Shown here one piece after another: positions 3,239 through 42,899 of a stretch of 64,000 nt of DNA. The DNA is from Candidatus Latescibacterota bacterium (GTDB lineage: Bacteria > Latescibacterota > UBA2968 > GCA-2709665). Under the pieces are notes generated by a model. It was not told the origin of the DNA. It made no database searches and was given only the letters and a program-made list of their open reading frames with translations. Position 1 is the first letter of the stretch; every line of letters starts with the position of its first letter. A program made the translations under genes and the position numbers. The stretch covers positions 288,001-352,000 of the forward strand of contig CBDDDZ010000004.1 of the NCBI GenBank assembly GCA_965226795.1, read 5' to 3'.

Positions 3239-3289
3239 CGCGCATTCAGTCTCTCTCCAGGAAGTCAGGTTGGCGCTAAGACGGGTGCT

Positions 3290-4501
3290 TCACCCATGCT
3301 GCTGCGCCCATCGGCGCACGACGCGGCTCAACTGCTGAAGGCGAACCCGCCCTGCCTGCGGATACACCGGAAGGAACAGCAGTTGCCGTTGCAGGACATC
3401 CACGCAGACTGGCAACTTGCCCGGCAGATCCCGATCGGGCCGAACCACGCAAAGCGACGGCGGCCACAGATGTCCGTCCAGGCCGGCATCCCAGAGCCGC
3501 CGGCACAGGTCCGCGGCATTGCCCACACGGACGACGAAGAGCCAATAGGTGTGTTCCGCCCCGTTGCCCGGGTAGCAGAGGTCCGGAACGCTGCGGTGAA
3601 ACGCCATGGCCTCAGGCCGGCTGCCGGTCCGCTCCAGAGCGTTGGAGCGCAAACGCCTCGACAATAAGGACAGAAGGGCGCCGCAGGGCTGACGGCGGAT
3701 TTTTTCGAGCAGTTCCACTCCCCGGAAACCGCGTGTGGCGCGGTAACTCACCGTATCGTGGGACCTGCCCAACAGGCGGCACGCGGCGCACAGAAGGGTA
3801 TAGGGTCCAGGCCTGTTGAGCAGGAGAACGACGCCGTATTTCGCCAGGCGCACGAAGAAACGGCCTTTGCTCTGTACCGGATAGTCGTTATGCAGCCGCC
3901 GAACTCTGTCTCGCAGGACGGGATCGCCCACAAAAAGAAGACCGCCACCCAAAGCGGTATTGTACTTGATAGGGCCGAAACTGAACATGCGCACGTGACT
4001 GCCCGGGTGGCCTGTAAAGCCGTCACCCCAGAACGCTTGGGCGCAGTCTTCCAACAGCACCAGGCCGTGACGCCTTGCGAAGCTTACGAGGGGATCCATG
4101 GGGATGCGGGCGCCGAACAAATGGGTCGCCAGCAGAGCAACGGTCCTGTGCGTGAGTCCGTTCTTCAGGCTTGTCGGATCCGGTTGAAGCGTCAGTGGAT
4201 CCAGATCGACCGGCACGGGCACGAGACCGTGGCTGCGGATGATTTCGAGCATGTCGGGAATGGTGATGGCAGACACCAGAACGTGCGACCCGCGCGGAAA
4301 ACGGGCGGCCTGGAAATAGGCATCGAATCCGCTGCGAAGCGAGAGAAAAAACAGGGCGCTGTCGGAATCGCCGGTGCTCTCCCGGCAGGCGGCATGGGCT
4401 TCGGCACGTCTGTCCTGCGCCAGGCATTGGCCCATCCCGAAAAGGAGATCGCGCCAGCCGATATCCAATCTTTTTCGAGGAATCATGGTCGATTCACTCA
4501 T
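3290..4501 (-). CDS. DegT/DnrJ/EryC1/StrS family PLP-dependent aminotransferase
   Basis: THLFG, LEDCAQA, SFGPIKYNTALGGG (PLP lysine). Confidence 0.85.
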   Translation of the reverse strand: MSESTMIPRKRLDIGWRDLLFGMGQCLAQDRRAEAHAACRESTGDSDSALFFLSLRSGFDAYFQAARFPRGSHVLVSAITIPDMLEIIRSHGLVPVPVDLDPLTLQPDPTSLKNGLTHRTVALLATHLFGARIPMDPLVSFARRHGLVLLEDCAQAFWGDGFTGHPGSHVRMFSFGPIKYNTALGGGLLFVGDPVLRDRVRRLHNDYPVQSKGRFFVRLAKYGVVLLLNRPGPYTLLCAACRLLGRSHDTVSYRATRGFRGVELLEKIRRQPCGALLSLLSRRLRSNALERTGSRPEAMAFHRSVPDLCYPGNGAEHTYWLFVVRVGNAADLCRRLWDAGLDGHLWPPSLCVVRPDRDLPGKLPVCVDVLQRQLLFLPVYPQAGRVRLQQLSRVVRRWAQQHG

Positions 4502-4732
4502 TCGCCGGCGCAGCCGGGGACGATGGGCTCAAACAGGGGAACCGACTCCGCATGGGGCGAAGGCCTTTTCGGGTTCTGCCTGATCTTCCGGCCCCGATAA
4601 TTCAAACATCCACAATGCCCACGTATTTACATCCGGATTCCCTCCAAAATACCCATATCCTGTTGCTAACTGCAACACATTAATTGACTTCGATATTGCA
4701 ATGCAGGGATGCCGACGGGCGCCATTGCCGAC

Positions 4733-4840
4733 CCGGAAACTTCGATCGAAAGCGCGCATTTCTTCCGGCGCGTCTGCTCGTCCCTTGAGAATGATTGTAA
4801 ACAATGGCCCTGTCGAGAGCATTTCCTCGGGTTCCACCAT
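4733..4840 (-). pseudogene. Remnant of the 5' end of a hlyD-like gene
   Basis: MVEPEEMLSTGPLFTIILKGRADAPEEMRAFDRSFR aligns with the HlyD N-terminus MAEPRLTKPSAAATPVILPGRDDGAEEMQAFVGSLR; 30/38 nt identity between 4829-4866 and 10457-10494. Confidence 0.6.
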
Positions 4841-5667
4841 CAGACAGGCGCACGGTCAGCCGGCGGTCCGACCGGCTCGCCCCCGCGTTTTGCCATCTGA
4901 TGGAACCATCGCAAACCGACCACGGCCAGGACAATACCGCACGCAAATAGCCACCATGGAAGGAATACCACGACATCCCAATCTTCCATGGGGCCGAATA
5001 TTTCCAGACGCGCGGTTGTCATTGCCAAAAAATTGTTCAGCGCGTGTCCAAATAGTGCGGGCAGCAAGGAGCCCGATTGAACGACCCACCAGGCAAATAC
5101 GAGCCCCAACATCAGTGCTGCGGGGAATTGCCATGGATTCATATGTACTACAGCGAACAGGACCGCCGACCAGAAAATGGCGCGACTCTGAGTGCAGTGG
5201 GCCAGCAAGCCACCGAGAATAACGCCTCTGAAGAAGATCTCCTCGGTAAGAGGCGCCTGAATCGCAAGGTTATAAAATGCGAAAGCATAAGGTGTTTCTC
5301 TCCCCATTAGGTCACGAAATATGTCAAGTGTTCCTTCTGGAACTGGAATCAGGTACTGAACAAAGTTTGCAAGGTTGAATAGAATGATGCCCAATCCGAC
5401 AATGGATACCGTAAAGGGCAGATACATTTGCCAGGGTACGGTCCTGAAGAGCAGGATATCGGACCATGGCCGACCGGATCGACGTTTAGCGTATAGCACA
5501 AACAGAGCAAACACGGGTAAATATGAAATCCATCCCAAATAAACAAAGATTCGCGTTGCCTGGCCTGATGCGACACCGAGGAAATGAAGCGCCAACCCCG
5601 ATGCGTTAATTGCCAATACAAGCAGAACCACCAGCCACACGGATTGCTTCAGATTCGGATACGTCAT
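4840..5667 (-). CDS. CPBP/Abi (CAAX-like) intramembrane metalloprotease, copy A
   Basis: EEIFFRG, FAVVH, GHALNN motifs; multi-TM; 275 aa. Confidence 0.92.
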   Translation of the reverse strand: MTYPNLKQSVWLVVLLVLAINASGLALHFLGVASGQATRIFVYLGWISYLPVFALFVLYAKRRSGRPWSDILLFRTVPWQMYLPFTVSIVGLGIILFNLANFVQYLIPVPEGTLDIFRDLMGRETPYAFAFYNLAIQAPLTEEIFFRGVILGGLLAHCTQSRAIFWSAVLFAVVHMNPWQFPAALMLGLVFAWWVVQSGSLLPALFGHALNNFLAMTTARLEIFGPMEDWDVVVFLPWWLFACGIVLAVVGLRWFHQMAKRGGEPVGPPADRAPV

Positions 5668-5820
5668 GCAACTCCTCCCATTCTTGGCATTCAGATGTCA
5701 GCAGGTACATTGCCCCGCATCCCCGGGGCCCGGTCCAGGTTGAATGCCACTCTTCCTTTCGGATTCAATCTTCCTGCATCAGCCGATTGTACCTCTTATA
5801 ATGCGAACCACGAAGTGCTC

Positions 5821-6648
5821 TTAGACACGCTCCCGGTCTGGCGGAGTGTTGACCTGTTCGCCTCTGTTTTTTGCGATCTGACTGAACCACCACAATCCGA
5901 TCAGAGCCAGGATAACGCCACATGCAAATAGCCACCATGGAAGGAATACCACGACATCCCAATCTTCCATAGGGCCGAATAATTCCAGACGCGCGGTTGT
6001 CACCGCCAGAAAATTGTTCAGCGCGTGTCCAAATAGTGCGGGCAGCAAGGAGCCCGATTGAACGACCCACCAGGCGAATACGAGCCCCAATATCAGGGCT
6101 CCGGGGAATTGCCATGGATTCATATGCACTACCGCGAACAGGAATGCCGACCAGAAAATGGCGCGACTCTGAGTGCAATGGGCCAAAAGACCACCCAGAA
6201 TAACGCCTCTGAAGAAGACCTCCTCGGTAAGAGGCGCCTGAATCGCAACGTTATAAAATGCGAAAGCATAAGGTGTTTCTCTCCCCATCAGATTACGAAA
6301 TATGTCGAGAATTCTTTCGGGAATTGGAATCAGGTACTGAATGAAGTTTGCAAGGTTGAAGATAATGATGGCCAATCCGACAATGGATACCGTAAGGGGC
6401 AGATACATTTTCCAGGGCACGGTCCTGAAAAGCAGGATATCGGACCATGGCCGACCGGATCGACGTTTAGCGTATAGCACAAGCAGAGCGAAAACGGGCA
6501 AGCATGAGATCCAAATTACATAATCAATGAGTCGCGGTGTTTGCCCTAGCGTGACATCCATAAAAGCCAACGCCGACCCCAATACGATATCGATAAACAC
6601 CATAATAACCACCAGCCAAATGGATTGCTTCAGATTCGGGTACGCCAT
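5821..6648 (-). CDS. CPBP/Abi intramembrane metalloprotease, copy B
   Basis: Start MAYPNLKQ after GGGAGGAAA RBS; EEVFFRG, FAVVH, GHALNN; 275 aa. Confidence 0.92.
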   Translation of the reverse strand: MAYPNLKQSIWLVVIMVFIDIVLGSALAFMDVTLGQTPRLIDYVIWISCLPVFALLVLYAKRRSGRPWSDILLFRTVPWKMYLPLTVSIVGLAIIIFNLANFIQYLIPIPERILDIFRNLMGRETPYAFAFYNVAIQAPLTEEVFFRGVILGGLLAHCTQSRAIFWSAFLFAVVHMNPWQFPGALILGLVFAWWVVQSGSLLPALFGHALNNFLAVTTARLELFGPMEDWDVVVFLPWWLFACGVILALIGLWWFSQIAKNRGEQVNTPPDRERV

Positions 6649-6801
6649 GTATTTCCTCCCGTTTAAACGATCAGATGTGAGCACATCCAACAATTCGCAT
6701 CCCCGGGGCCCGGTCCAGGTTGAATGCCACTCTTCCTTTCGGATTCAATCTTCATGCATCAGCTGATTGTACATCTGATATTGGATACCAGAGCAGTGCC
6801 C

Positions 6802-7629
6802 TTAGACAAGCTCCCGGTCTGCTAGCGTTTCGACCTGCTCGCCTCTGCTTTTTGCCATCTCATTGAACCACCACAATCCAATCAGGGCCAGAAGAATGCC
6901 ACATACATGCAGCCACCACGGAAGCAACATCACGGCATTGAAATCATCCACGGGTCCGAAAATTTCCAGATGCGCAACGGTAACTATCAGAAAATTGTTC
7001 AGCGCGTGTCCCACGATCGCGGGCAGCAGAGAGCCAGTTTGGACGACCCACCATGCGAATACGAGTCCCAATATCAAGGCCGTGGGAAATTGCCATGGGT
7101 TCATATGAAATATAGCGAACAGGCACGCCGACCAGACAATGGCCTGATTCCGCGTTCGGTGGGCCAACAAACCACCCAGTATAACGCTTCTGAAGAGGAC
7201 TTCCTTAATCAATGGCGCCTGAACCACCATGACATAAAATGTGAACGGGTAGGACTTCTCCTTCCCTGCCAGATCCCCGAATACGTTGAGCATTATTTCG
7301 GGCACCGGTATCAGGTGCCGCAACAGGTTTCCCAGGTCCGAGCCAACGATTGCCAGTCCAACAATGGACACGCCGAGCGGCATGTAGAATTGCCACGAAA
7401 CCCGCTCAAAAAGCAGGATCTCGCGCCAGGTCCGATCTGCTCTACGCTTTGCGTAGATTACCGTCAAAACGAAACCGGCTAATATCAAGAGCTGGATTTC
7501 GTGTGGACTGTGTTGTAAAGACCGGTCGAAGATGAGACCCAGGATAGCGATCGGCACCCCCAGTACCACGCTGATCAGGAAAAACAATATCAGGAGCCAC
7601 ACGGATTGCTTCAGATTCGGATACGCCAT
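6802..7629 (-). CDS. CPBP/Abi family protein, copy C (first catalytic Glu replaced by Lys)
   Basis: Start MAYPNLKQ after GGGAGGAAA RBS; KEVLFRS instead of EExxFRG; FAIFH, GHALNN; 275 aa. Confidence 0.9.
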   Translation of the reverse strand: MAYPNLKQSVWLLILFFLISVVLGVPIAILGLIFDRSLQHSPHEIQLLILAGFVLTVIYAKRRADRTWREILLFERVSWQFYMPLGVSIVGLAIVGSDLGNLLRHLIPVPEIMLNVFGDLAGKEKSYPFTFYVMVVQAPLIKEVLFRSVILGGLLAHRTRNQAIVWSACLFAIFHMNPWQFPTALILGLVFAWWVVQTGSLLPAIVGHALNNFLIVTVAHLEIFGPVDDFNAVMLLPWWLHVCGILLALIGLWWFNEMAKSRGEQVETLADRELV

Positions 7630-8255
7630 GTATTTCCTCCCATTTAAACGATCAGATGTGAACACATCCAACAATTCGCATACCAGTGGGGGCGCGGCCC
7701 AGGAAAAATGCCTTTTCTTCGTTGTGGATCTAAACCACCTGCAACTGTTGACTGCACAGGTGATAGTAAGGACCGCGCCGCCACGTCGGTTCACCGAACG
7801 TGCCGAAACGGGCACAAAAAAATCCCGCTCCATCCCCTCGCCATTCAGTGATGAACTTTCCGGCGGCACCCCGATTAAAGGGTGCCGGGCAGTGTCACCA
7901 CTCACGCAGCTTTGAGGATGCGGGAAGGTCCTACGTATTCACCGGGGACAAGGGAGCTACCCTTGCCACTGAATGTCGGCTATTGTATTCGGTAGGCTAC
8001 CCGACATACGGGTACTGCCTGAGTGGTGACAACCGGAATATAGAATCCGCGATTTGGAAAGACAAGCGTTAATTCAGGATGAGACTGAAGAAGGCGATCG
8101 GTCGGCAGCGAGGTGTTGCGCTTATTCGAAGCGTGCCATTATGATGGCGTCTGTCTGCGATTAAGCCCTTCTGCTGATAAGCGGAAGTTGTACCTCGAGG
8201 GCTGAACTGTGGCCATTGGTGCAGCACTCAGTGACTCGCCTCTGCCTGGTGTGCA

Positions 8256-9071
8256 TCACATTCTCTGCTTCCCGGCCTCCCAGATCGGATAGCGTATGTC
8301 CGCCCGCTGCAATTCCCTTTGAAGCCACTGGCTGAATAATGTGTCGCGAATCTCGCTTCGAACGCGGTCGTCCAGCGTGGCCGGATAGGTTTGCTGCAGC
8401 ATGAATAGCGCGAACCCGCCCGACGCCTTTTCGGGTCCGAATATCTCCCCCGGCGAGGCGGCGAAAACCCGCGCCGCGATTCCCTTCGGCAACAGCTTGC
8501 GCCGCACGCGCCCCATAAACCCGCCTGCCGGGCGCGTCCGCTCATCTTGCGAAAATTCGCGGGCCATCGCGCAAAAATCCGCGCCGTCTTCCCGCGTCTG
8601 AAGCGCAATCTCCTCGATAATGCCTCTGTCCGGGTGGAAGATCCGGCAGACCTCCGCCTCGTCGAAATCCAGCGTGTTTTGCGCGAAATAGCGTTCGATT
8701 TCTCCTTCGGCTATTTTTTCACACAGCAGGCGCTCCAACAGCCTGGCTTCGGCTTCCGCCGCAACGTCTCCGAGAGTAATACCTCGCGATACGAGCCAGG
8801 CTTCCGTGTCTTCCACCCTTTCCAGGCGATGTCGATATCGCCAATCGTCCACGTCACGCTGAATGTCTTCGGACGTCGTGTGAACACCTTCCCGGACGGC
8901 AAGCTGCCGAACCAGTTCTCTGCGTGCGAATTCACCGAAAAAATCGAGTTTGTCGGCAGCGCCCAGCTGACGTACGACCTGTTTGAGTGACACGTCAATG
9001 CCATTCACCCGGACCAGCGTTATTTCAACGGCCGTGGTTTCGGTTTCGCCTTCCTCCGGATGCCGCATCAC
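8256..9071 (-). CDS. PpiC/parvulin-like peptidyl-prolyl isomerase-domain protein of a peptide export system
   Basis: ADFCAMAREFSQDERTRPAGGFMG, VFAASPGEIFGP rotamase-like motifs; coupled to hlyD. Confidence 0.82.
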   Translation of the reverse strand: MMRHPEEGETETTAVEITLVRVNGIDVSLKQVVRQLGAADKLDFFGEFARRELVRQLAVREGVHTTSEDIQRDVDDWRYRHRLERVEDTEAWLVSRGITLGDVAAEAEARLLERLLCEKIAEGEIERYFAQNTLDFDEAEVCRIFHPDRGIIEEIALQTREDGADFCAMAREFSQDERTRPAGGFMGRVRRKLLPKGIAARVFAASPGEIFGPEKASGGFALFMLQQTYPATLDDRVRSEIRDTLFSQWLQRELQRADIRYPIWEAGKQRM

Positions 9072-10468
9072 ATATCCCCCCGCTGTTCAACTGACGTTTC
9101 CACGGCGTCGTACGTTGCGGACTCGTAGAGCTTTCGCAAAGGACTGAGCAGCATCAGCAAGACCGATTGACGGTCGGTCATGATTTCCGCCGTTCCCCTC
9201 ATGCCGAAAAGCAGTGGCTTTTGCTGTCCCTTTACGGCCATGGTGGTTTCTTCCAATTCAACAACAGCCCTGAAGATCGGCCCGACACTCTCGTCGATGA
9301 CGGCATCGGGGGAGAGTTGTCTGAGCCACCCGCGTTTGATGCCAAAGTCCTGAAATGCAAACGCGTCGTATTTCAGTTTGACTATCTGTCCGGGTTTAAG
9401 CAGGCCCACGTCCCTGTTCAATACAGTGAGTTCGGCAACCATAGGAGCGGAGGTCGGCGCCACCGAAACCAACGCCTGACCCTTACTGATCACCTGTCCC
9501 AGGGTGTTCACCATTACCTGCGTTACCATGCCCGGCTCCGGCGCCAGAATCAGGTCCGATTCGGCTTCCAACTGTCGATCGACGCGTTTACGCGCCTGTT
9601 CCAATCTCAATCGCGCGGTTTCATACGCGTGTTTCATCTGCTGCGCCTCACGCCCGTGGGCGATGCGAGCCTCGAGAATCTGCCGCTGGAGATCCTGGAC
9701 AGCCGTTTCGTTCTTGTAGATTTCCGACATGCGTCCCGGAAGCGCCGCCAGGGCGCTGAGGTACCGAACGCGCGCGCGATTAATATCCACGCGGCTGATC
9801 AGCTTGCGCTCAAACAGCATTTTCTGCTGCAGGTAATCCTGTTTCAAGTGGTCGATCTCAGCCTGGCGAAAGCCGATTTGTGCCTGCAACTCAGCGTCCG
9901 AAGCGCTCCTTCCCGCGGCCGCGACGTCACCCACGTCCGCGTGGTAATCCTGCAAGGCGTTCTGATGGGCCACCATGAACCGCTCCAGAACAGACAGTCT
10001 TTTTTCCATTGACGCGATGGTTTTCCGGTTCAATTCCGTCCTCTGGGGCAATACCCGTTGAAGATCGTACTCGGCCTTTTGAAACGCCATTTCCGTCTGT
10101 TCCAGTTCTCGAAGGTCTCCCCAGGTTTCCCATGACTTCAGTTTAAACAGCAATTGGCCTTCTTCGATCCGATCGCCTTCGCTGACGCCGATATGCTCGA
10201 TTTCACCGCCTCGACGGGCCTGAAGTGTCTTCACCTTGCCCAGAGGCACTAATCGGAAGGGCGCCGATGCCACCACGTCCACCTTGCCCCGCCACGCCCA
10301 AGCCACCGCGATTCCTACAAAGAGCAGAACGAGATAAAGCAACGCTCGCCCCCAGAACGGCCTCAGAGACCCCACGAACGCCTGCATCTCTTCCGCACCG
10401 TCGTCCCGTCCCGGGAGAATGACTGGCGTCGCTGCTGCCGACGGCTTTGTTAGTCTGGGTTCCGCCAT
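9068..10468 (-). CDS. HlyD family periplasmic adaptor (type I secretion)
   Basis: N-terminal TM, coiled coil, ILAPEPGMV, VKLKYDAFAFQDFG, GMRGTAEIMTDRQS. Confidence 0.92.
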   Translation of the reverse strand: MAEPRLTKPSAAATPVILPGRDDGAEEMQAFVGSLRPFWGRALLYLVLLFVGIAVAWAWRGKVDVVASAPFRLVPLGKVKTLQARRGGEIEHIGVSEGDRIEEGQLLFKLKSWETWGDLRELEQTEMAFQKAEYDLQRVLPQRTELNRKTIASMEKRLSVLERFMVAHQNALQDYHADVGDVAAAGRSASDAELQAQIGFRQAEIDHLKQDYLQQKMLFERKLISRVDINRARVRYLSALAALPGRMSEIYKNETAVQDLQRQILEARIAHGREAQQMKHAYETARLRLEQARKRVDRQLEAESDLILAPEPGMVTQVMVNTLGQVISKGQALVSVAPTSAPMVAELTVLNRDVGLLKPGQIVKLKYDAFAFQDFGIKRGWLRQLSPDAVIDESVGPIFRAVVELEETTMAVKGQQKPLLFGMRGTAEIMTDRQSVLLMLLSPLRKLYESATYDAVETSVEQRGDM

Positions 10469-10495
10469 CAGATCGGCTCCTGGTCTGCCGGAGGT

Positions 10496-13400
10496 TCAGA
10501 CCACCTGCAACTGCTGGCTGCACATGTGATAGTAAAGTCCCTGGCCCACCATCAGCTCTTCGTGCGTGCCCATGTCGACGATATGGCCCTTTTCCAGTAC
10601 AACAATCGTGTCCGCATCCCTCACGGTGCTCAAACGATGGGCGATGACGAGAGCCGTACGATTCTCAAGGAATAGCGCCAGATTGGACTGAATCGCACCT
10701 TCCGAGTCCGTATCCAGCGCATTTGTCGCCTCGTCGAAAATCAGTATCTTCGGATCGCGATACAGCGCCCGAGCGATCGCGATCCGTTGCCGCTGCCCGC
10801 CGGACAATCCAATTCCCTGTTCGCCCACCTTCGTCTCGTATCCCAAAGGCATATCGCTTACGAAATCCTGGACGCAGGCCAGTCTGGCAACTTCCAGGAG
10901 CCTGTCCAAATCCGCGTCAGGTTCGCCGACCGCGATGTTCTCCGCAATGGTGCCGCTGAACAGAAACGAGTCCTGCATAACCATGCCCACCTGGCGGCGC
11001 AGCCAGTGAGGGTCGAAATCGCGCACATCCATCCCGTCCAGGAGCACACGCCCTTCCGAGGGATCGAACAGGCGGGGCACCAGCTTTACGAGCGTGGTCT
11101 TTCCCGCGCCGCTGCGGCCGACAATGGCGACCTTTCGGCCCGGTTCCAGTTCCAGCTCGATGTTGTTCAACACGTAGGGCTCGTCGGAACCGACGCCGTA
11201 CCTGAAAAACACACCGTCAAACACCAGGCGGCCCTCGACCCGCTTCAGTCTCAGGCCGTGTCCGCGTTGGCGCGCATCCTCCATCTTCGATTCGTAGACG
11301 TCATTCAGCCTGTCCAATGCGACCCGGGCTTCCTGGACCTCCGGCCACACGCCGATCAGTCCCATAATGGGTCCCATCACATTGCCGATGAGGGCGTTGA
11401 AAGCCATCAACTGCCCCACCGACAACTCCCCTTTGATAACCAGGGAGGCGCCATACCACAATATCACCGTGGAACTCAAGAGATTGATCATACTTCCGCC
11501 CGCGCCGAACAACATCTCCATTTTCAGCCGCCGAAACCCGATCTGAACTTCCCTCGTAAACTTGCCCTCCCACTGCCATCTCGTAACCCGCTCGACGGCT
11601 TCGGCTTTCACCACGTCAATGCCATGCAGCGAGTCGATCAGAACGGACGACTGTTCCGCGCGGGCAAGAAATGCGCGCTGGCTGAAGGACTTCAGAATCG
11701 GGGTATAGATCAGCGTCAAGCCCACGGACAGCGGCACGAATATCAACATCACGAGCGTCAATTCCCAGTTGTAGTAGAACATCAGCCCTAGATAGACGAA
11801 CAACATGATAAAGTCGAGTATCGCCGAGACGGTCGTGTCCGTAAAGAGACGCTGAATCGTGGCATTTTCCTTGAACCGCGTGGTCAGATCGCCGGTGCGG
11901 CGCAGCGCGAAAAACCGCATGGACAGGCCCAGCAGATGCCGGTAGAAGCGGGACAGCATGGTCAGACTCAACCGGGCGCTCATATACCCTATTAAATACG
12001 CGCGCAACGTCGAGGTACCCATTTGAAACAGTGCCACGACCACCATGCCCGCCAGCATCAGGTTCAGGAGACCCTTATCGTGATGAACCAGAACCTGGTC
12101 GACGATTGTCTGTGTGAAAATAGGCGAGGCAAGGCCGAATAAACTGAGCACGAGGGACGCCAGCAGCACCTCGATCAGAATTGCCGTATAGGGCTTGATC
12201 AATGGGAAGAATCGTTTGAAGGAAGACCTGGAGGGTTCATTCTCGGCCACCTGATCCGTGTACTCCAGCAGCAACGCCATGTTGGTCCAGCTTTTCTCGA
12301 ATTCCGGACGTTTCAACCTGCGAAGGCCCAAACCGGGATCCGCGATTTTCACATCCTTTTTGGTGATCTCATACAACACCACGAAATGGTTGCCCTCCCA
12401 GTGCAGAATCGCCGGCAGTCCGGTCCGGATCAGCGCTTCATAGCCCGTGCGCACGCCCCGCGTGACAAACCCCAGCGTCTCCGCCGCCTCGGCCAATGCC
12501 GCCATCGACGTGCCGTCCTTCGACACGTTGCACATATCGCGCAACCTGTTCAACCCCAACGGCAACTTGTAGTACTTGCAGATCATACCCAGACACGCAG
12601 CGCCGCAATCGGACTGGTCGTGCTGCTTCAGGAATGGAAAACGAAACGACGTGGGCGCGCCTTGTCCACCCCCATCCGTATCGCTATCCCCGGTACTGGA
12701 TGCCGGTCCATTCATCTCCGCGACGTTGTTCCCGTCCGTCCCTCCCGCCGGCACACGAAATCCCCCGGGTTTCGTCTCGGGAGACAGCGACCCGTCCGTT
12801 CCCTGATCCAGGTGTAATCGCCGGGCTATCTCCGGTAAGGACGCTAATTCAGGAATTGCATATATGAAGCTATCGAGTTCGTGTTTATCCAAATAATAGA
12901 TAACGCAATCTTGCTGGCTGCGGATCGTCCGTTGCTCGCCATCTGAGGAATCCGTATCCTCGAAAAAATCGCCCGTGACTAAATTCAGCGCACTGCCGTC
13001 CTCTGAGATCACTTCCAACCCGCCGCTGCCCACAAGGCAGAACCGCCCGCGCGAACGACCGGGTTCGGCTATCGTCGTTCCTTCCGCAACCTCTTCGCGC
13101 TTCAAACGCCCGAAGAGGTTGCGCATTGTCTTCCCGGACACAGACCCCTTCAGATAGCGGGTGAAGTTCCGGTATGCGATATTCTCAACCTGGTCCTGGA
13201 GATTTGCTTCCAGATCCGGTTCTTTCTTCAACACCTCGAAGAATTCATCCCGCGGCACCCGCATCACCCCGGAATCCTCAACCGCCCGCACGGTTGCCCG
13301 GTGACCGCGCCCCGTCAACAGCGCCCCTTCGCCAAAGTGATCTCCGGGATACAGATAGCCCAGCGTCTCCGAACGGCCGTCCGCAGCCTGTTTGATGACC

Positions 13401-13531
13401 CGCAACCGACCGGATTGAACGACGTAAAATGCGTCGCCAGTTCCGCCTTGATTAAAGATGACCGCCCCGAAGGGAAACCGGGCGGATTCTGACTGAATCT
13501 CATGTTGGGAAAACGGGGACGAGACGTCCAT
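10496..13531 (-). CDS. Peptidase-containing ABC exporter (cNMP-binding domains + C39 peptidase + TMD + NBD)
   Basis: GDHFGEGALL cNMP motif; QHDQSDCGAACL (catalytic Cys) and HWEGNHFVV (His); GRSGAGKT, LSGGQRQR, IFDEAT. Confidence 0.95.
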   Translation of the reverse strand: MDVSSPFSQHEIQSESARFPFGAVIFNQGGTGDAFYVVQSGRLRVIKQAADGRSETLGYLYPGDHFGEGALLTGRGHRATVRAVEDSGVMRVPRDEFFEVLKKEPDLEANLQDQVENIAYRNFTRYLKGSVSGKTMRNLFGRLKREEVAEGTTIAEPGRSRGRFCLVGSGGLEVISEDGSALNLVTGDFFEDTDSSDGEQRTIRSQQDCVIYYLDKHELDSFIYAIPELASLPEIARRLHLDQGTDGSLSPETKPGGFRVPAGGTDGNNVAEMNGPASSTGDSDTDGGGQGAPTSFRFPFLKQHDQSDCGAACLGMICKYYKLPLGLNRLRDMCNVSKDGTSMAALAEAAETLGFVTRGVRTGYEALIRTGLPAILHWEGNHFVVLYEITKKDVKIADPGLGLRRLKRPEFEKSWTNMALLLEYTDQVAENEPSRSSFKRFFPLIKPYTAILIEVLLASLVLSLFGLASPIFTQTIVDQVLVHHDKGLLNLMLAGMVVVALFQMGTSTLRAYLIGYMSARLSLTMLSRFYRHLLGLSMRFFALRRTGDLTTRFKENATIQRLFTDTTVSAILDFIMLFVYLGLMFYYNWELTLVMLIFVPLSVGLTLIYTPILKSFSQRAFLARAEQSSVLIDSLHGIDVVKAEAVERVTRWQWEGKFTREVQIGFRRLKMEMLFGAGGSMINLLSSTVILWYGASLVIKGELSVGQLMAFNALIGNVMGPIMGLIGVWPEVQEARVALDRLNDVYESKMEDARQRGHGLRLKRVEGRLVFDGVFFRYGVGSDEPYVLNNIELELEPGRKVAIVGRSGAGKTTLVKLVPRLFDPSEGRVLLDGMDVRDFDPHWLRRQVGMVMQDSFLFSGTIAENIAVGEPDADLDRLLEVARLACVQDFVSDMPLGYETKVGEQGIGLSGGQRQRIAIARALYRDPKILIFDEATNALDTDSEGAIQSNLALFLENRTALVIAHRLSTVRDADTIVVLEKGHIVDMGTHEELMVGQGLYYHMCSQQLQVV

Positions 13532-13617
13532 TATTTGTAACCCTGCCAGAAAATCGCACAGGTGGGAACTGTGCGTCCGGAATTCCGGATACTGAAATTA
13601 ACGGATAAGAAGCCATA

Positions 13618-13637
13618 ACATACTAAATATAGTATGT
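13618..13637. promoter_or_regulatory. Perfect inverted repeat upstream of the exporter operon (candidate operator)
   Basis: ACATACTA-aata-TAGTATGT in an AT-rich intergenic stretch ~90 bp upstream of the exporter ATG. Confidence 0.5.
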
Positions 13638-13832
13638 AAACAGGCATTGACCACAAAAAGCATTGATCCATCCAGAAGATCAGTTACGTGGTTGGCGCTG
13701 TAGCGATCTATGGCAAGAGAATCCCGATTCGGTAAATGCTCAATTGACGTCGTCTGTCACGTCGATTACAGCGAGCCATCTCTACACTACTTTAAAGGCG
13801 CCATCTGCCGGATCCTTCGGTTCCGGATGGGT

Positions 13833-14648
13833 TTAGCCAGTGTCCGCGCATTTGTCCGCCGGCAATATGCGGAAGCCGAGTTCCGACGGGTGATCGTGAA
13901 CGTATCTGTCATTCTCAAATCGGCGGACCTTGAAAAACAGCAGCACATCTCCGGCACAACCGCAGAACGTGAGACTGAAGAGCAATAGCGACCAGATCGC
14001 CGGGTCCCACCACAGTATCAAACCGGCGGCCGGTGTGGTCACAATCAGGGGCAAGAGCGCGAATACCCGGTAAACACCCACCGTCATGGGTCTGTCGACG
14101 TGACAATACAAGGCCACCCATCGCCTGAAGATTCCGAAGTGCAGCGATTGAATCGGAATCTTACCCCAGCACAGGGCGGCGAGACCGTGGAGTGCTTCGT
14201 GGAAGACATAGAAGGCGATCAGGTATCCTGGAAACTTCAGTAAATCGTTGAACGTCAGACGTATATCGATTTCCCGTGACAAGGCATCTCCTGCCAGGAT
14301 ACCACTTGCAAACGCAGTCCAGAACATGAGCATGAAAATTATGCCCACATCTTCTATATTGAGACCCACATCTATAGGTTTCTGCGCGTTGTTGCGATCC
14401 TCTTCCCCTGTTCCTGACGTGAAGATATCGCGTATGATCGACAGGAATCTGTCGCCATACGCACAGAGCGTCTTTCGTGACATCAAAAAGTACATCGACA
14501 TGCCGGTCAGGACGCCAATTGCTATCGCGTAGTCGAGATCAAGCACGTACCTGAGGATGAGCATGGCCGGCGCCACGGATAGCATCCCAAACAATGCGGC
14601 AGCGACAATAAGCCGTTTCCACGTTCCACCGAGACAGGCGTACATCAA
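13833..14648 (-). CDS. Membrane zincin-like metallopeptidase (DUF3267-like)
   Basis: VFHEALHG (HExxH), LYCH, ALLPL, GCAGD, VHDHPSELG; several TM helices. Confidence 0.78.
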   Translation of the reverse strand: MMYACLGGTWKRLIVAAALFGMLSVAPAMLILRYVLDLDYAIAIGVLTGMSMYFLMSRKTLCAYGDRFLSIIRDIFTSGTGEEDRNNAQKPIDVGLNIEDVGIIFMLMFWTAFASGILAGDALSREIDIRLTFNDLLKFPGYLIAFYVFHEALHGLAALCWGKIPIQSLHFGIFRRWVALYCHVDRPMTVGVYRVFALLPLIVTTPAAGLILWWDPAIWSLLLFSLTFCGCAGDVLLFFKVRRFENDRYVHDHPSELGFRILPADKCADTG

Positions 14649-14747
14649 CCAGAACCTCCGTTCATGGATACCTTGCCCCTTTTGGAGGGACAGTAGCGCG
14701 TACCGTAAGTTGCTCGTGCCGCGAGGCCAGATACAGTCGCCCAGCGT

Positions 14748-15602
14748 CTACCGGTCATCTTTATCAGCATCCGTAGTCACAGTTCCGTCCATGGTGTTGG
14801 CGTGTCCGCTCCTGGAAACGAGGTAGAACCACCACAATCCAAAGGCAGACACCAATGCCCCGGATACAATCCACCACCAGGGATTGAAAACCACAACATT
14901 CATGTCTTCTGAAACTGGGAAAAAAGGAACGTCAAAGTGTTGGATCGTCACTGCGATAAGGTTATGCAACGCATGTGCAAGAAGCGCGGGACAGAGAGAT
15001 CCCGTACGAATAACCCACCAGGCTAAGATGAAACCCCATATAACGGCGGGCGGAAGTTGCCAGGGATTAAGATGCCCCACACCAAACAATATCGCTGAGA
15101 ATACAACCGCGCGGGTCGGGGTGTAGTTATCCAGCAGACCACGTAAAATGACACTTCTATAAAGTAGCTCCTCGATCAACGGTGCTACGAAAACAACCAC
15201 GAACAGGGCGGATGAATAGGTTGTCTTTTGGCCGGCCGTCGATTGAAAGACATTTTGAAAAAAATCAGACATGGGAATTATGGATATGACGGCCTTGTCC
15301 AATTCATCAAGAACCACTCCCATGCCTGCCACCGATATTGCTACGCAGGGCCAAACGCGCCAATCAAAGTGTATGTTCATGAGTTGCGATATATCGTCCC
15401 ACGATCGATCAGTACGTCGAAAAATCCACATTAATAGAAGAAGGAATCCTACCAGTTGTAGCATACCAACCAGGAGGTTTTCCTCGTGCAAACGCTCGCC
15501 ATAGTTGAGCCGCACGATTGCGATGAGCACTCCCGCTCCAACTTGAATCAGAAGGAAGAAGATCAGCAAATAAACCGACTGTTTCAGATTGGGGAATATC
15601 AT
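14748..15602 (-). CDS. CPBP/Abi intramembrane metalloprotease, copy D
   Basis: MIFPNLKQ start; EELLYRS, FGVGHLNPWQ, AHALHN. Confidence 0.9.
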   Translation of the reverse strand: MIFPNLKQSVYLLIFFLLIQVGAGVLIAIVRLNYGERLHEENLLVGMLQLVGFLLLLMWIFRRTDRSWDDISQLMNIHFDWRVWPCVAISVAGMGVVLDELDKAVISIIPMSDFFQNVFQSTAGQKTTYSSALFVVVFVAPLIEELLYRSVILRGLLDNYTPTRAVVFSAILFGVGHLNPWQLPPAVIWGFILAWWVIRTGSLCPALLAHALHNLIAVTIQHFDVPFFPVSEDMNVVVFNPWWWIVSGALVSAFGLWWFYLVSRSGHANTMDGTVTTDADKDDR

Positions 15603-15847
15603 TCAACCATCCTCTCTTGAAGCTCTCTTGATCCGAATCTCCCCCATATGTCACATTGCATTACATTACGATCGACCAACCATGAATTGCAGAATGGCCA
15701 CTTCAGACTAAAGGAAAACAATGCGGTGAGTACGAAATCCAAAGCGTCCGGATTCTCTGCGATCGAATTTAGGCTAGACGGGGGCCGGTGCTATGCATTG
15801 CACCTGCTGCAAGCGCACACGCAACATATCAGTATTTACGAGTCTTT

Positions 15848-16690
15848 TCATTCAGCTTCTGGCGGCACGGATCCGGCCGCGGTATCGGGCTGGGTACTGT
15901 TCGTAACCTGATAAAACCACCATGATCCAAGAACAGCCGCTACAGCCCCGGTAAGTACCCACCACCACGGATTGAACGCTACAACATTCAAGTCTTCGGG
16001 AACCGCGAAGAATGGAATTTCAAAGTGGAAAAACGTTGTAAACAAAAGGTTGTTCAATGCATGTCCGACAACCGCCGGCAATAGTGATCCCGTCCGGATT
16101 ACCCACCAGGCCAATACGCCTCCGGCTATCAAGGCCGCGGGAAACTGCCATGGATTCAGATGACTCGCGCTAAACAAAATCGATGAACAGATAATCGCGT
16201 ACGTCCTGCTAGAATTCGCCAGCAGGCCACTCAAGACAATACCCCTGTAGAACAACTCTTCGACATACGGTGCGACGAAGGTTCCCCGAAACAGGGCAGA
16301 TGGAAAGGACGTTTCGCGCCCAACCGTCGATTGGAAGAAATCCTGGATAGTCTCCGGCATAGGAAATACCAATACTACGGCTTTGTTGAGTTCGTGAATG
16401 ACCACCACAATTCCGGCTATCGATATTGCAACGCAAGGCCATACGCGCCAGTCGAAGTGCGATTTCGCAGGTCGAAAAAAACTCACCCACCGTCGATCGG
16501 TCCGACGTGAAACGTAAGCGACAATAACAAGAAAAGCCGCGAATGCCGCCAGACCCGTTACATAGCTGTTATCTCCAAGGGATTCCCCGCTGATCGACTC
16601 TACAACGGAGATGAACAATCCAATGCCGACCTCCAGCAGCAAGAGCAGGGCCGTCAGCCAGATGGCCTGCCTCAAGTTCGGATACGCCAT
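15848..16690 (-). CDS. CPBP/Abi intramembrane metalloprotease, copy E
   Basis: MAYPNLRQ start; EELFYRG, FSASHLNPWQ, GHALNN. Confidence 0.9.
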   Translation of the reverse strand: MAYPNLRQAIWLTALLLLLEVGIGLFISVVESISGESLGDNSYVTGLAAFAAFLVIVAYVSRRTDRRWVSFFRPAKSHFDWRVWPCVAISIAGIVVVIHELNKAVVLVFPMPETIQDFFQSTVGRETSFPSALFRGTFVAPYVEELFYRGIVLSGLLANSSRTYAIICSSILFSASHLNPWQFPAALIAGGVLAWWVIRTGSLLPAVVGHALNNLLFTTFFHFEIPFFAVPEDLNVVAFNPWWWVLTGAVAAVLGSWWFYQVTNSTQPDTAAGSVPPEAE

Positions 16691-16774
16691 TTCAATTCCC
16701 TTTCCCTTTCTTACTTACGAACCGACGTAGTGCCTTGACTACAGAATATGGCGACGCGTAAATCCACGTTTACC

Positions 16775-16810
16775 GGGATAGAAGCACCTATTGCCGAGTG
16801 CTTCTATCCC
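16775..16810. terminator. 13-bp stem-loop between the precursor genes and CPBP genes
   Basis: GGGATAGAAGCAC-ctattgccga-GTGCTTCTATCCC; no clear U-tract, so it may be a stability or attenuation hairpin. Confidence 0.55.
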
Positions 16811-16842
16811 CCTAAATTACCGCGTGGACCGCCCGCTTCGTG

Positions 16843-17118
16843 CTACCTCTTGCAACTGCAGCGGCAACAACTTGATGGCTTCTCCTTATCGTCGTTAGTA
16901 GCCTCAGCTGTCAAGTAACCGGCAACGAAACCTTGAACGACAGGGACGACATACTTGGCCACTAACTTCACACCTTCGCGGATGAGTATCCCCCAACCTC
17001 CCTGTGTTTCTACCATCTGACGGCTTCCCAACAGTTCTTCGCGCGGTTGCAAGGGGTCGCAAGTTACAAACATGCGACCGGTTTCTGTAGTCATTGGATC
17101 TGTCAACGCATGTATCAT
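16843..17118 (-). CDS. Double-glycine-leader peptide precursor P1 (41-aa leader, 50-aa core with Cys-rich tail)
   Basis: RBS CAGGAGG; MIHALTDPMTTETGRMFVTCDPLQPREELLGSRQMVETQGG|WGILIREGVKLVAKYVVPVVQGFVAGYLTAEATNDDKEKPSSCCRCSCKR. Confidence 0.8.
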   Translation of the reverse strand: MIHALTDPMTTETGRMFVTCDPLQPREELLGSRQMVETQGGWGILIREGVKLVAKYVVPVVQGFVAGYLTAEATNDDKEKPSSCCRCSCKR

Positions 17119-17320
17119 GATGTCCTCCTGACGGATTAATTGAATTCCTTGCAATTCAAGAAATGATGTGCATCTCCCTTCACTGTTACGGTGTTTGTCC
17201 TCCGCTGTCAAGGGTTTTGAGGATTGTCGTGATTTCGTAAAGCGTCTATGTGTCGAGAACTCGTTCTGCACCTGGAAGCATAGCCGTACAACAGTCTTCT
17301 TCCGTTCCGAACACCAACCA

Positions 17321-17527
17321 TCAACGTGGTCTGGCCATGCGTTCGATAACTTCAGCGACAAGCCGCAGGGCGAAATTCACGTAACGCCCGAGTCGGTCAT
17401 CACCTGGAGGAACGAACCCACCTGAAGCATGCGCCATTTCACACCGCGCCAAGTTGGTTTCACGGCCGGGGAGTCGAGTGCACGTCACGGAGACCTCGGT
17501 TGGCGTGGTCAGAAATCGATCCGTCAT
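17321..17527 (-). CDS. Double-glycine-leader peptide precursor P2 (37-aa leader, 31-aa core)
   Basis: RBS AAAGGAGGTG; MTDRFLTTPTEVSVTCTRLPGRETNLARCEMAHASGG|FVPPGDDRLGRYVNFALRLVAEVIERMARPR. Confidence 0.82.
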   Translation of the reverse strand: MTDRFLTTPTEVSVTCTRLPGRETNLARCEMAHASGGFVPPGDDRLGRYVNFALRLVAEVIERMARPR

Positions 17528-17670
17528 TAAATCACCTCCTTTCTTCAACATTACAGCGGTTCGTAAGGATGTCGCGTGGACTTTGCTACCAGATTAACGA
17601 AGCCCACCCCATTAACAGCGGTGTTCGCTAAGAGGAATTGGTTGGCGAAGGTTCTGGCCCCCGGTCAATC

Positions 17671-17865
17671 CTAGTCTTCAAAGTAATCGACTATGGCCTC
17701 TGCAATTCTCTCGGCAATAAACCAGATCATAGGGCTCCTCCCAAGGGGTAAGAAACCACCAGATGTATTCCTCATCTCACGACGCGCCAGGGCGATTTCC
17801 TGTCCGGGGAGCTGAGCGCAGGTCACGGTGGCCTGCCCGGGTGTTGATAGAATATGATCGGTCAT
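17671..17865 (-). CDS. Double-glycine-leader peptide precursor P3 (37-aa leader, 27-aa core)
   Basis: RBS AAAGGATG; MTDHILSTPGQATVTCAQLPGQEIALARREMRNTSGG|FLPLGRSPMIWFIAERIAEAIVDYFED; leader homologous to P2. Confidence 0.82.
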   Translation of the reverse strand: MTDHILSTPGQATVTCAQLPGQEIALARREMRNTSGGFLPLGRSPMIWFIAERIAEAIVDYFED

Positions 17866-17949
17866 TTCGTCACATCCTTTCTACTTTTGCTGTGGGATGT
17901 CCTTGCGAATGTCTCAGTCACCATAGCTCGATGAAATACTCCTCGACAA

Positions 17950-18153
17950 CTACAGTACAGGACCTGAAGTGTCCGCTTCCGGTGGATTCGTGCCTAAATC
18001 TATGCCGAACAGATCCCGCAGGATGTCCCGCCAGCGTATACCTCCACCGGAGATACGTGCGATCTGCCCGTGGGTCAAGTCCTCCGTCCGGATGGGAAGC
18101 CGAGCCGGAATTCCGGACGAGTCCACAGGGCTTGATACAGTTCGTCTGTTCAT
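17950..18153 (-). CDS. Double-glycine-leader peptide precursor P4 (37-aa leader, 30-aa core)
   Basis: RBS AAAGGAGGTG; MNRRTVSSPVDSSGIPARLPIRTEDLTHGQIARISGG|GIRWRDILRDLFGIDLGTNPPEADTSGPVL. Confidence 0.75.
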   Translation of the reverse strand: MNRRTVSSPVDSSGIPARLPIRTEDLTHGQIARISGGGIRWRDILRDLFGIDLGTNPPEADTSGPVL

Positions 18154-18759
18154 GTCTTTCACCTCCTTTCGTCGACATCCCCGCGATATCCAATCAATCT
18201 CCAATTCCTTCGATCGTGGAGCCGGATACGCATCGCTGAGATGCCATGATGTCCGAAGCGTTTTGTATGCCTTTTTTTCCATCGCGGCACACGCCCCGCC
18301 GGGGCGGCTTCGGCTGCGAATCAACCGTAATAACCTGTCACGCGACACTCGTTGCCGGTGACTCCGTCGACGCATAGGACTCGCAAGGATTGTGCCACTC
18401 CCGATACCCCGGGGCATAACTGTCTGGCTTGCATATGCGAATTAATTTTCGAACCGGGGGGAGGTCGTCGTACCACGGCCGGTACTTGAAATTAGTGTTC
18501 CGTTGTACATCACTCAGATGAAACATTGTTGTATTTTGCGCCGCGCCGAACGCACCGGGAAGCGTTGCAACAAAAAAACACCGGTGACAAAAGCCACCGA
18601 TGTTCGATCCAACAAGAAAGTTCAGATGGGTAATTTCAGCCCGCGTTCGACGGGCAATCACGCGAAGGGTATTGGGTCAACAAGGCTGCTTTATTCGCGA
18701 ATCAATCATCTTCCCCGCGCACAATGGCTTGTCGAGCCCTTGAGGAAGCATGTGTGAAG

Positions 18760-18784
18760 GTGGGGCAGACATTCCTGTCTGCCC
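18760..18784 (+). repeat. REP-like palindrome
   Basis: GTGG-GGCAGACA-ttcc-TGTCTGCC-C. Confidence 0.7.
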
Positions 18785-18787
18785 TTC

Positions 18788-18990
18788 TCATTGTCCTTTT
18801 GCCGGAATGCAGACAGAAGAAAGGCTTGCGCCGCCATTATAGAACCAATACTCGGGATGGCGCTTGAGCCTCAGCTTACGCGCTTCCTTGAAGGCGCGGC
18901 GTTTGTCCCGGGGGATCGCGTCAGCCAGGCGAAAGGTGATCCAATAGACAGCACCGTCCTTCTTCCAGTGGGGAAGACGGCGGCGAGTTT
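18788..18990 (-). pseudogene. N-terminal fragment of a REP-associated tyrosine transposase (RAYT, Y1/HUH-like)
   Basis: RRRLPHWKKDGAVYWITFRLADAIP resembles the RAYT N-terminus; truncated before the HUH motif; flanked by REPs. Confidence 0.65.
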
Positions 18991-19036
18991 TGGCGTGCCC
19001 GGACACAGCATTCTGAGATTTCGGTTTGCTGTATAT

Positions 19037-19061
19037 GAGCAGACAAGAATGTCTGCTCCAC
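19037..19061 (-). repeat. REP-like palindrome, inverted relative to 18760-18784
   Basis: Minus strand GTGGAGCAGACA-ttct-TGTCTGCTC. Confidence 0.7.
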
Positions 19062-19481
19062 CTTTTCAAGCTTTTGTTCGAAGTATCGCTTGAGCGCATC
19101 AACCGTCCGAGACAAAACACCCTGTACTTGCTTCCCCCTCCCGAAACAGCAAGGCGCCACTGTCTCATGTGTGCGTGCGGTGACGCAAAGGCAGACCGGT
19201 CGTCACCGTCAAATGCGAGCGGGAAACCGCTGGCATCCGCGAAGCGACGGCGCCTGGCTCTATCGTTCCGATAACGCCATCGAATGCCGCCGCTCGCTTA
19301 GACGTATTTCTTCGAAAGACGTCCCGTTACAGTTGCCGAGGTTCCGAGATATCGTTAAACTTGGTAACGTCGTCGTTGAACGTTCCGCGGAACGCCAATG
19401 GAATGAGGCTAACAAAGTGATAGGGCCCCGTAGCGTAAGCCGGGACCGTGTCCATCCCCCACCCGAAACCAACCGACATCG

Positions 19482-31014: not shown

Positions 31015-31036
31015 GGATCAGGTCCGTTAACTCCCT

Positions 31037-32919: not shown

Positions 32920-32998
32920 GCAGCCTCCGCTTGAACGCTCTCATATTTTCGACGGTGTGACGACGATTATAAACCACGCCCAAGCACATGATCCCCAC

Positions 32999-34642: not shown

Positions 34643-34797
34643 AGTTTATCATTCGGGTTTGGCGCCCGTTTCCCTGGGTCGCATTGTAATCTTGGTGAGC
34701 TTGTCTTCGAGTACCTTATAGATTGGGTCACTAACTTGCTTTACAGTCTGGCGTGCTTCCAAAAAAGAGGGGTTCATTGTCTAAGATCCGCGGTATG

Positions 34798-42889: not shown

Positions 42890-42899
42890 TCAGCAAGCC

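Follow-up and report, generated by a model that had tools for sequence, protein, structure and literature searches.

Gene content of the locus

The window analysed here is a 64,000-nt stretch of DNA (contig C4:288001-352000) from a 5.41-Mb, 96% complete genome of a Candidatus Latescibacterota bacterium, from a phylum that includes a lineage described as first found in sponges (10.1101/2024.01.09.574914), and the subject of this work is a peptide secretion locus on its minus strand. The genes run in the order of four precursor genes (P1-P4), two membrane peptidase genes of the CPBP family (CPBP1 and CPBP2), a DUF3267 membrane zincin, an exporter joining two cNMP domains to a C39 peptidase and an ABC transporter, an HlyD-family adaptor, a rotamase-domain (PpiC-like) protein, and three further CPBPs (CPBP3-5), i.e., the locus holds six membrane peptidase-family genes, five CPBPs and the zincin (Table 1). 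The initial annotation had placed the block on the minus strand at 4840..18153, and both the placement and the span were borne out, with every gene that it listed found. Its description of one co-oriented block stands in that all the genes are on the minus strand, but the block probably comprises two transcription units, given a promoter-like site before CPBP3.

The same annotation had reported no LanM, YcaO or radical-SAM gene, and none of these domains was found among the 19 open reading frames (ORFs) scanned in and around the block. Nor was any modifying enzyme found among the ORFs scanned in the cluster, which is what is expected of class II bacteriocins. A search of the 96% complete genome found no YcaO anywhere, and modification of the Cys tail of P4 by a thiazole/oxazole-modified microcin (TOMM)/YcaO system was rejected on that ground. 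The genome search for LanC carries no weight, as none of its controls gave a match. One PqqD gene is present in the genome, unlinked to the locus, and no further copies of the system or of the precursors were found in the window genome.

Table 1. Features of the secretion locus and of related loci (positions refer to the window unless a locus is named; TM, transmembrane).
Feature	Position	Strand	Remarks
P1 precursor	17950..18153	-	67 aa; 37-aa leader and 30-aa core; net charge -2; amphipathic
P2 precursor	17671..17865	-	64 aa; 37-aa leader and 27-aa core; net charge -3
P3 precursor	17321..17527	-	68 aa; P2 paralogue (46% identity); 31-aa core; net charge +2
P4 precursor	16843..17118	-	91 aa; 41-aa leader and 50-aa core; net charge +3
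CPBP1 (Rce1-like/Abi)	15848..16690	-	EExxxR, FxxxH and HxxxN intact
CPBP2	14748..15602	-	motifs intact
DUF3267/PF11667 membrane zincin	13833..14648	-	H150-E-x-x-H154, P200, D234
Remnant of second zincin gene	~13630..13756	-	E 2.6e-5; also seen in L022
cNMP(x2)-C39-ABC exporter (PCAT)	10496..13531	-	1011 aa; Walker A and signature present
HlyD-family adaptor	9068..10468	-	TIGR01843 204 bits, cut-off 208.65
PpiC/parvulin-domain (rotamase) protein	8256..9071	-	TIGR04500-like, below cut-off
Sigma-70-like promoter match	8037..8065	-	TTGTCT-17-TATATT; -10 box conserved in congeners
Conserved structured RNA	7864..8032	-	169 nt; long closing stem, nested helices, 3' hairpin
ABC 3'-end copy	7734..7770	-	36-nt copy of the ABC gene's last codons, upstream of CPBP3
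CPBP3	6802..7629	-	KE in motif 1, first catalytic Glu missing
CPBP4	5821..6648	-	motifs intact; 80% identical to CPBP5
CPBP5	4840..5667	-	motifs intact
Small 2-TM gene in relatives	L024, L027:6928-7206, L042:1915-2184, L050:2597-2860, L052, L056, L084	+ (L024)	
GT-b/GT-a pair upstream of precursors	L037, L039, L041-L060, L075-L081, L085, L091, L092		

Precursor genes

Each of P1-P4 has a strong, AGGA(G/T)G-type ribosome site and carries a Gly-Gly pair at residues 36-37 (40-41 in P4). Among the 587 ORFs of 50-110 aa in the genome that are led by a ribosome-binding site, 14 carry [STQ]GG between residues 30 and 45; P1-P4 account for four of the 14 and lie within 1.3 kb. P1-P4 are real genes: the claim of four small double-Gly leader genes was upheld by ribosome sites, conservation and selection alike. 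The P4 core consists of a hydrophobic helix and a Cys-rich tail, and two of the four cores (P1 and P2) are anionic. P1 is the "IRW" allele of a gene with two discrete alleles, found at seven loci each; the ratio of nonsynonymous to synonymous substitution rates (dN/dS) is 0.28 for its core (7 loci) and 0.24 for the P2 core (13 sequences).

Contigs from RNA libraries (four runs, with small shares only, 0.05-0.19) cover P4 (16812-17222) and pieces of CPBP1, CPBP2 and the zincin, ABC, HlyD and PpiC genes at a depth of 2-8; they also cover flanking genes, and there is no cover in the bins over P2-P3 and CPBP3-4. Because DNA carry-over is possible, this cover was not used as evidence of expression. 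The roughly 450 nt upstream of P1 (18160-18620, minus strand) are conserved in the 14 congeneric loci and are likely a promoter or regulatory region; several blocks in them do not vary at all, and a hairpin-T run lies at 18605-18576.

A leader family across relatives

Forty homologous exporter regions were fetched, then 20 more, and a leader profile was iterated over the first 40 and the window. It yielded 98 precursors from 38 loci, and true matches (E<=2e-4) were clearly separated from background. As a search with a leader hidden Markov model had been expected to show, small ORFs are conserved beside homologous exporters, including those of all 14 congeneric genomes. The leaders are 37-44 aa long, with L-12 in 92 of the 98, E or Q at -8 in 82, L, I, V, M or F at -7 in 81, and G at -2 in every one, while position -1 is G in 75 and L in 19. 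All four window leaders fit the L-12/E-8/hydrophobic-7 double-Gly motif, which with its G is described as the C39 recognition motif (PMC6363468). Outside this known motif, the family shares L-19 (97/98) and P-18 (81/98), and the segment from -20 to -13 is the most constrained part of the leader in all four leader groups tested.

P1-P4 match no curated Pfam or NCBIfam peptide family, in agreement with the initial annotation, which did not recognise the leader or the core, and neither an NHLP nor a Nif11 leader domain was matched by precursors of the window or its relatives in these databases. A literature search, with subscription journals and supplementary tables of biosynthetic gene clusters largely outside it, returned no description of the leader family or the locus. 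The leader family is undescribed and of no curated peptide family, though within the PCAT exporter kind. Leaders and cores have dN/dS of 0.22-0.35 (pooled Nei-Gojobori estimates for classes with at least three members) against 0.14-0.18 for the exporter genes, ratios which indicate that the precursors are under purifying selection.

A profile built from 96 of the 98 leaders matches 41 of the phylum's 168 genomes, and these 41 belong to two families within a single order. In 61 genomes, leader match and PpiC orthologue occur together in 40, each occurs alone in one, and neither occurs in 19, a co-occurrence that is partly circular, since most of the loci also served to build the profile. In two genera the system is near-universal (14/14 and 21/21 genomes). 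Among 1.84 billion representatives searched, 102 proteins match; some 89 are short precursors, and the others are artefacts of repeats. Two orphan precursors (L086, L087) have no exporter within about 10 kb. Glycine-zipper cores of relatives give sub-threshold matches to Bacteriocin_IIc (best 24.5 bits against 27.1), and one of 79 relatives' precursors passes the class IIb model TIGR03949 (22.9 against 21.5). Loci L075-L080, L082, L094 and L036 represent divergent subfamilies, in which the precursors are 136-156 aa long and rich in Gly, Ser and Thr, TPR genes are present and a REC-AraC regulator lies upstream.

Export machinery

The exporter passes the cut-offs of PF00664, PF00005 and PF03412, and in its C39 domain (about residues 298-430) the catalytic residues Q303, C309, H382 and D398 are intact and align with those of PCAT1 (4ry2), as the earlier remark on intact Cys and His had it; the four are conserved in almost every full-length orthologue. 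The window genome has one copy of the exporter triad. HlyD adjoins the exporter, and the locus itself contains no TolC-family gene; six lie elsewhere in the genome, which agrees with the proposed Gram-negative (diderm) export locus.

The best NCBIfam match of the rotamase gene is TIGR04500 (putative peptide maturation system protein), at about 82-83 bits over residues 13-260, short of the cut-off of 180 and with the family's first ~80 positions missing. Both parvulin His positions, which we take to matter for isomerase activity, are replaced across 40 homologues; the PpiC-like protein is therefore likely a chaperone rather than an active isomerase, possibly one for the L-19/P-18 motif. A predicted complex of this protein with the leader scored 0.16 against a mark of 0.32, with controls not folded, and is no evidence either way.

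The copy of the ABC 3' end upstream of CPBP3 would be a trace of an earlier ABC-CPBP junction; the gene order ABC-CPBP-HlyD occurs in L027, L040 and L042. At L035 (G014), the exporter gene is broken by an insertion with a SIR2-STAND-TPR gene, and four precursors and the peptidases are retained.

Membrane peptidases and a small two-transmembrane gene

Five of the genome's six CPBPs are at the locus. All five are over the PF02517 cut-off, and the EExxxR, FxxxH and HxxxN motifs are intact in four of them; CPBP3-5 form a tandem triplet with a 981-nt unit. Across 68 near-full-length CPBPs, motif 1 reads EE in 57, KE in 9 and DE in 2, and the nine KE proteins, CPBP3 included, are one clade of intact ORFs with dN/dS of 0.30. 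By these features CPBP3 is probably a kept, non-catalytic binder. Characterised CPBPs are described as serving several ends: MroQ cuts the AgrD leader, Abx1 regulates a kinase without needing proteolysis (PMC10482373), and SkkI, PlnI and PlnL are Abi immunity proteins (PMC8538875).

The window zincin matches PF11667 at 57.8 bits against a cut-off of 27.1 and bears an N-terminal 2-TM module related to a small standalone gene in relatives. This gene is 84-95 aa long, unannotated, and located after glycine-zipper precursors, with no Pfam match in the three tested; it aligns with the N-terminal module of the long zincins in HHalign (77%, E 2e-5 over 71 columns, against 2% for a control). As described in PMC13712780, the DUF3267 protein TmcP, an S2P-clan intramembrane peptidase, removes a 45-aa bacteriocin leader and needs the 2-TM escort TmcE. 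In loci L041, L042, L053 and L088, the precursors are separated from the exporter by inserted DUF1570 peptidase-like and S41 peptidase genes, which may encode further protective peptidases.

Pairing of cores with partners and swapping of cassettes

Of 11 "TNPQ..WY" cores, spread over three genera, 10 precede a zincin, and the eleventh is at a contig end. Among the 14 congeneric loci, the short-zincin clade is found in 6/6 carriers and 0/8 others, scattered over the ABC tree. WDW glycine-zipper cores are accompanied by the small 2-TM gene in 7/7 loci (61 loci examined), and five further loci keep the 2-TM gene without a WDW core, where it resembles an orphan immunity gene. In a genus of the sister family (g6, 20 loci), cores are more hydrophobic in the 10 loci with downstream peptidases than in the 10 without (p=0.003). 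That each P1 allele goes with a CPBP clade of its own was also considered and rejected, with no association at p<0.1.

Comparison of the window with its congeners gives discordant divergence within the locus. Against the closest relative, G008, synonymous divergence (dS) is 0.11 for the ABC gene and 0.99 for the zincin; against G013, it is 0.39 for the ABC gene and 0.11 for the zincin. P1 of G008 differs by one residue in the leader, and its core is the other allele. These comparisons indicate that cassettes recombine and are exchanged between species. Class II bacteriocin loci do likewise, e.g., the pneumococcal blp loci, which are described as recombining and as holding immunity genes of the CAAX and small membrane types (PMC4860687). 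The expanded and diversifying CPBP set of the initial annotation was supported: membrane peptidases are expanded, diversify and track core type.

A glycosyltransferase pair in relatives

Outside the window genus, two co-oriented glycosyltransferase genes, GT-b and GT-a, are located directly upstream of the precursors. GT-b joins a GT4 half to a GT28C-like half, its N-terminal half being closest to PEP-CTERM/exopolysaccharide (EPS) glycosyltransferases (TIGR04063, 325 bits against a cut-off of 442); at several loci it is reduced to the C-terminal GT28C-like half. GT-a is a 467-aa MshA-like GT4 protein with a 100-aa tail and belongs to a compact family of 45 proteins, beyond which similarity falls steeply to generic GT4s. 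It occurs in 25 of 61 genomes (g6 21/21, g2 2/2, one in g11, a remnant in g4, and 0/15 in the window genus), as does GT-b (25/61, likewise 0/15 in the window genus), and neither was found in the window genome. Of the GT-a matches, 37/38 are within 700 nt upstream of a leader (three divergent subfamilies), with a gap to the precursor of 50-225 nt in the 20 loci measured. The two enzymes may decorate the peptides. The description of the peptides as unmodified consequently holds for the window genus, to which we limit it because most relatives carry the two linked glycosyltransferases.

In a PpiC tree (FastTree, rooting approximate), the window genus is one clade (0.999), sister to the glycosyltransferase-bearing g6 loci, with further glycosyltransferase-bearing lineages lying further out. 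As the window genus is nested among such lineages, loss of the glycosyltransferases is the simpler history. The GT-a tail shows strands followed by three helices in the full model; modelled alone, it gives a low-confidence structure (predicted local distance difference test, pLDDT, 65.5), whose best Z of 7.4 is to unrelated helical proteins, and no PqqD or RiPP recognition element (RRE; RiPP, ribosomally synthesised and post-translationally modified peptide) appears among the 50 matches listed. A GtrA gene and a TMEM260-like (DUF2723) O-glycosyltransferase at 19482-22003 (plus strand, divergent from the locus) were considered as a replacement for the lost enzymes and rejected; 20 g6 genomes have the TMEM260-like gene unlinked to the peptide locus, and no copy was found in 4/14 congeners that keep the locus.

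A tentative extension of these observations is that the relatives make an unrecognised class of ribosomal, glycosylated peptides, of which the leader family would be the mark and in which GT-a and GT-b would decorate the cores before cNMP-gated C39 export with a PpiC-like chaperone, and that the window genus, having given up glycosylation, came to rely on undecorated membrane-active peptides, against which a growing set of CPBP and TmcP/TmcE-like partners would guard. If true, one order of uncultured Latescibacterota would record a transition from RiPP to unmodified bacteriocin, with more than 100 natural precursor-partner pairs.

A structured RNA before CPBP3

The promoter-like site and the structured RNA of Table 1 sit between the rotamase gene and CPBP3. 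The spacer at 7790-8040 folds far better than shuffles (z -5.7), and the RNA shows compensatory changes in 21/41 pairs over 27 sequences. It is at the same position in 13/14 congeners; in other genera it is dispersed before varied genes, and it is present in 34/61 genomes overall. Copies of the element (L095-L124) precede variable, often secreted-looking genes across the order and class. The RNA scores 26.1 bits (E 0.98) against sRNA-Xcc1 (RF02221), whose gathering threshold of 53 is not reached, and an identity as 6S RNA was rejected, as there was no such Rfam match. We read the element as a putative mobile promoter/leader RNA fixed before CPBP3-5, and these three genes as likely a separately promoted, broader protective module.

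Possible functions of the locus

Starting from direct observations (the genes and their selection, the catalytic residues, the leader motif, the pairing and swapping, and the absence of the glycosyltransferase pair from the window genus), we lean, with modest confidence, towards unmodified class II-like antagonistic peptides with peptidase-type self-protection. The cNMP-C39-ABC protein would cut the four precursors after Gly-Gly, with the PpiC-like protein acting as a chaperone at the L-19/P-18 motif, and the cores, unmodified and likely membrane-active, would pass through HlyD and a borrowed TolC to act as antibacterial peptides that kill other bacteria. The CPBPs and the zincin would provide core-specific self-protection by binding or cutting peptide lodged in the producer's own membrane; CPBP3-5 would add separately promoted, broader protection, with CPBP3 as the non-catalytic binder. 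If this is right, uncultured Latescibacterota have a family of secreted peptides that runs through the lineage and had gone unannotated. All precursors are directly synthesisable, and with the natural core-partner pairings one could test whether CPBP/Abi and DUF3267 proteins at peptide loci serve protection or processing, and what sets their specificity. The glycosyltransferase-bearing relatives would be candidates for new glycopeptide chemistry with GT4 enzymes, for which the genus without glycosyltransferases is a built-in control.

Several points weigh against antagonistic peptides. No bacteriocin model (PF10439, TIGR03949, PF17508) matches P1-P4 at E<=1. Typical bacteriocins are cationic, unlike these mostly anionic cores: net charge is +2 or more in 8/47 and -3 or less in 17/47 cores of the window genus, and -3 or less in 45/51 outside it. 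The cores are conserved (dN/dS 0.22-0.28), with no detectable diversifying selection, and 19 leaders end in GL rather than GG or GA. As for the pairing, the 6/6 against 0/8 result is the best of 64 tests, with two precursors reassigned by eye; kin loci are not independent in the counts; in 4/10 of the "no peptidase" g6 loci, a zincin or CPBP gene that was not counted precedes the glycosyltransferases; and L043 departs from the g6 hydrophobicity pattern. Moreover, the same core-partner pairing would arise if the peptidases mature the peptides.

This last point leads to the best surviving alternative, which we nevertheless consider unlikely: that the zincin and CPBPs serve maturation and escort, acting after C39 cleavage or in its place to trim and release precursors embedded in the membrane (P4, for example), as TmcP/TmcE do for TMcin and MroQ for AgrD. 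The published leader-removal role of the zincin family (PMC13712780) makes processing a live alternative to immunity. TmcP, a leader-removing peptidase with its escort TmcE, is the only characterised DUF3267 protein that we found, and the window zincin has the HExxH, the distal Pro and Asp and an N-terminal 2-TM module. MroQ, described as cutting the AgrD leader (PMC10482373), is itself a CPBP, and strict core-partner pairing fits an enzyme and its substrate. However, the intact C39 exporter already accounts for leader removal, and ten g6 loci have acidic cores without a downstream peptidase. The orphan 2-TM genes and the conserved KE clade of CPBPs fit protection better than processing, and the TmcE-like helices are C-terminal in TMcin-type fusions, whereas the module is N-terminal here.

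Somewhat more doubtful is a role of the peptides as surface or matrix components (adhesion, biofilm, host matrix), with the ancestral glycosyltransferases making a glycosylated matrix peptide or an accompanying glycan. The precedent is EbfG1-4/PteB of Synechococcus elongatus, in which four small GG-motif proteins and a C39 exporter are described as needed for biofilm (PMC4997328), and TIGR04500 also matches, below cut-off, in S. elongatus. The anionic charge of most cores, the kinship of the N-terminal half of GT-b with PEP-CTERM/EPS enzymes, and the near-universal presence in two genera, which suggests a core function more than a patchy weapon, all point the same way. A matrix protein, though, has no need of cognate membrane peptidases or 2-TM partners matched to core type, or of alleles exchanged at the GG boundary, and the window genus has no glycosyltransferases.

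Strain-specific signals (pherotypes), with CPBPs as receptors or signal processors and the exporter's cNMP domains tying release to cell state, are improbable: the two discrete P1 alleles, a conserved, probably inactive CPBP that could bind (Abx1 is described as acting without proteolysis; PMC10482373) and the REC-AraC regulator preceding some relatives' loci speak for them, but no kinase or response regulator is among the ORFs scanned in the window locus, and the closest REC-AraC homologues in the window genome are unlinked. Several cores that are long and hydrophobic or have glycine zippers also count against signalling, being atypical of pheromones.

Flanking regions

Downstream of the locus, a DegT aminotransferase, a B12-binding subunit and a MutL/GlmL-like gene (1380-4840, minus strand) are syntenic in the genus and preceded by orf103 (4529-4840). 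We rejected orf103 as a member of the locus and treat it as decaying because it is frameshifted or interrupted in many congeners; it has no family match. On the other side, at 18757-19064, 26-nt inverted repeats (92%), 256 nt apart, surround a short transposase-like fragment, over which RNA-library contigs pile up with loose ends, as for a small mobile element. A lower-GC, defence-island-like region at 28374-44078 holds a type III restriction res fragment, a DNA methylase, an HD protein, a pentapeptide-repeat protein, a SMODS-associated 4TM effector and an HTH-IrrE peptidase.

Comparison with known systems

The locus is most readily set beside the class II bacteriocin/microcin loci of the AMS/PCAT kind (PCAT1, ComA/BlpA, LahT, blp), with which it shares a C39-ABC protein with Q/C/H/D and an adaptor, a number of double-Gly precursors that carry the L-12/E-8/hydrophobic-7 motif, partner genes of the CAAX and small membrane kinds, and mosaic cassettes. 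Unlike those loci, it has two N-terminal cNMP domains, a PpiC-like third subunit, a DUF3267 zincin partner, a 37-44-aa leader with L-19/P-18, and mostly anionic cores; it has no two-component system, its host is diderm, and its relatives carry linked glycosyltransferases.

Glycocins and other glycosylated RiPPs resemble the relatives only, where glycosyltransferase genes immediately precede the GG-leader precursors and a C39 exporter is encoded as well. The glycocin enzymes of the SunS type belong to GT2. In contrast, GT-a is an MshA-like GT4, and the window genome is without GT-a and GT-b. The TIGR04500 family has been reported near actinobacterial graspetide loci (PMC8939145); unlike in that context, there is no ATP-grasp enzyme at the window locus.

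EbfG1-4/PteB is similar in that, by its description, four small unmodified GG-motif proteins are encoded beside a C39 exporter in a diderm; there, the EbfG proteins act in biofilm, and no CPBP or zincin partners are mentioned in that description (PMC4997328). TMcin (TmcA/TmcP/TmcE/TmcBC), as described in PMC13712780, is similar in its DUF3267 peptidase with HExxH, distal Pro and Asp, its 2-TM accessory module, its precursors with a hydrophobic helix and Cys residues, and a leader of ~40-45 aa. It differs in being Gram-positive and in having a type V ABC transporter and DsbA in place of a C39 exporter and GG leader, whereas the window locus has C39-ABC with HlyD and the 2-TM module is N-terminal or standalone. 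Finally, four of the five CPBPs share EExxxR/FxxxH/HxxxN and a position beside peptide genes with SkkI, PlnI, PlnL and MroQ, and, unlike these, they belong to a set of five paralogues in one locus, one of which is of the conserved KE clade.

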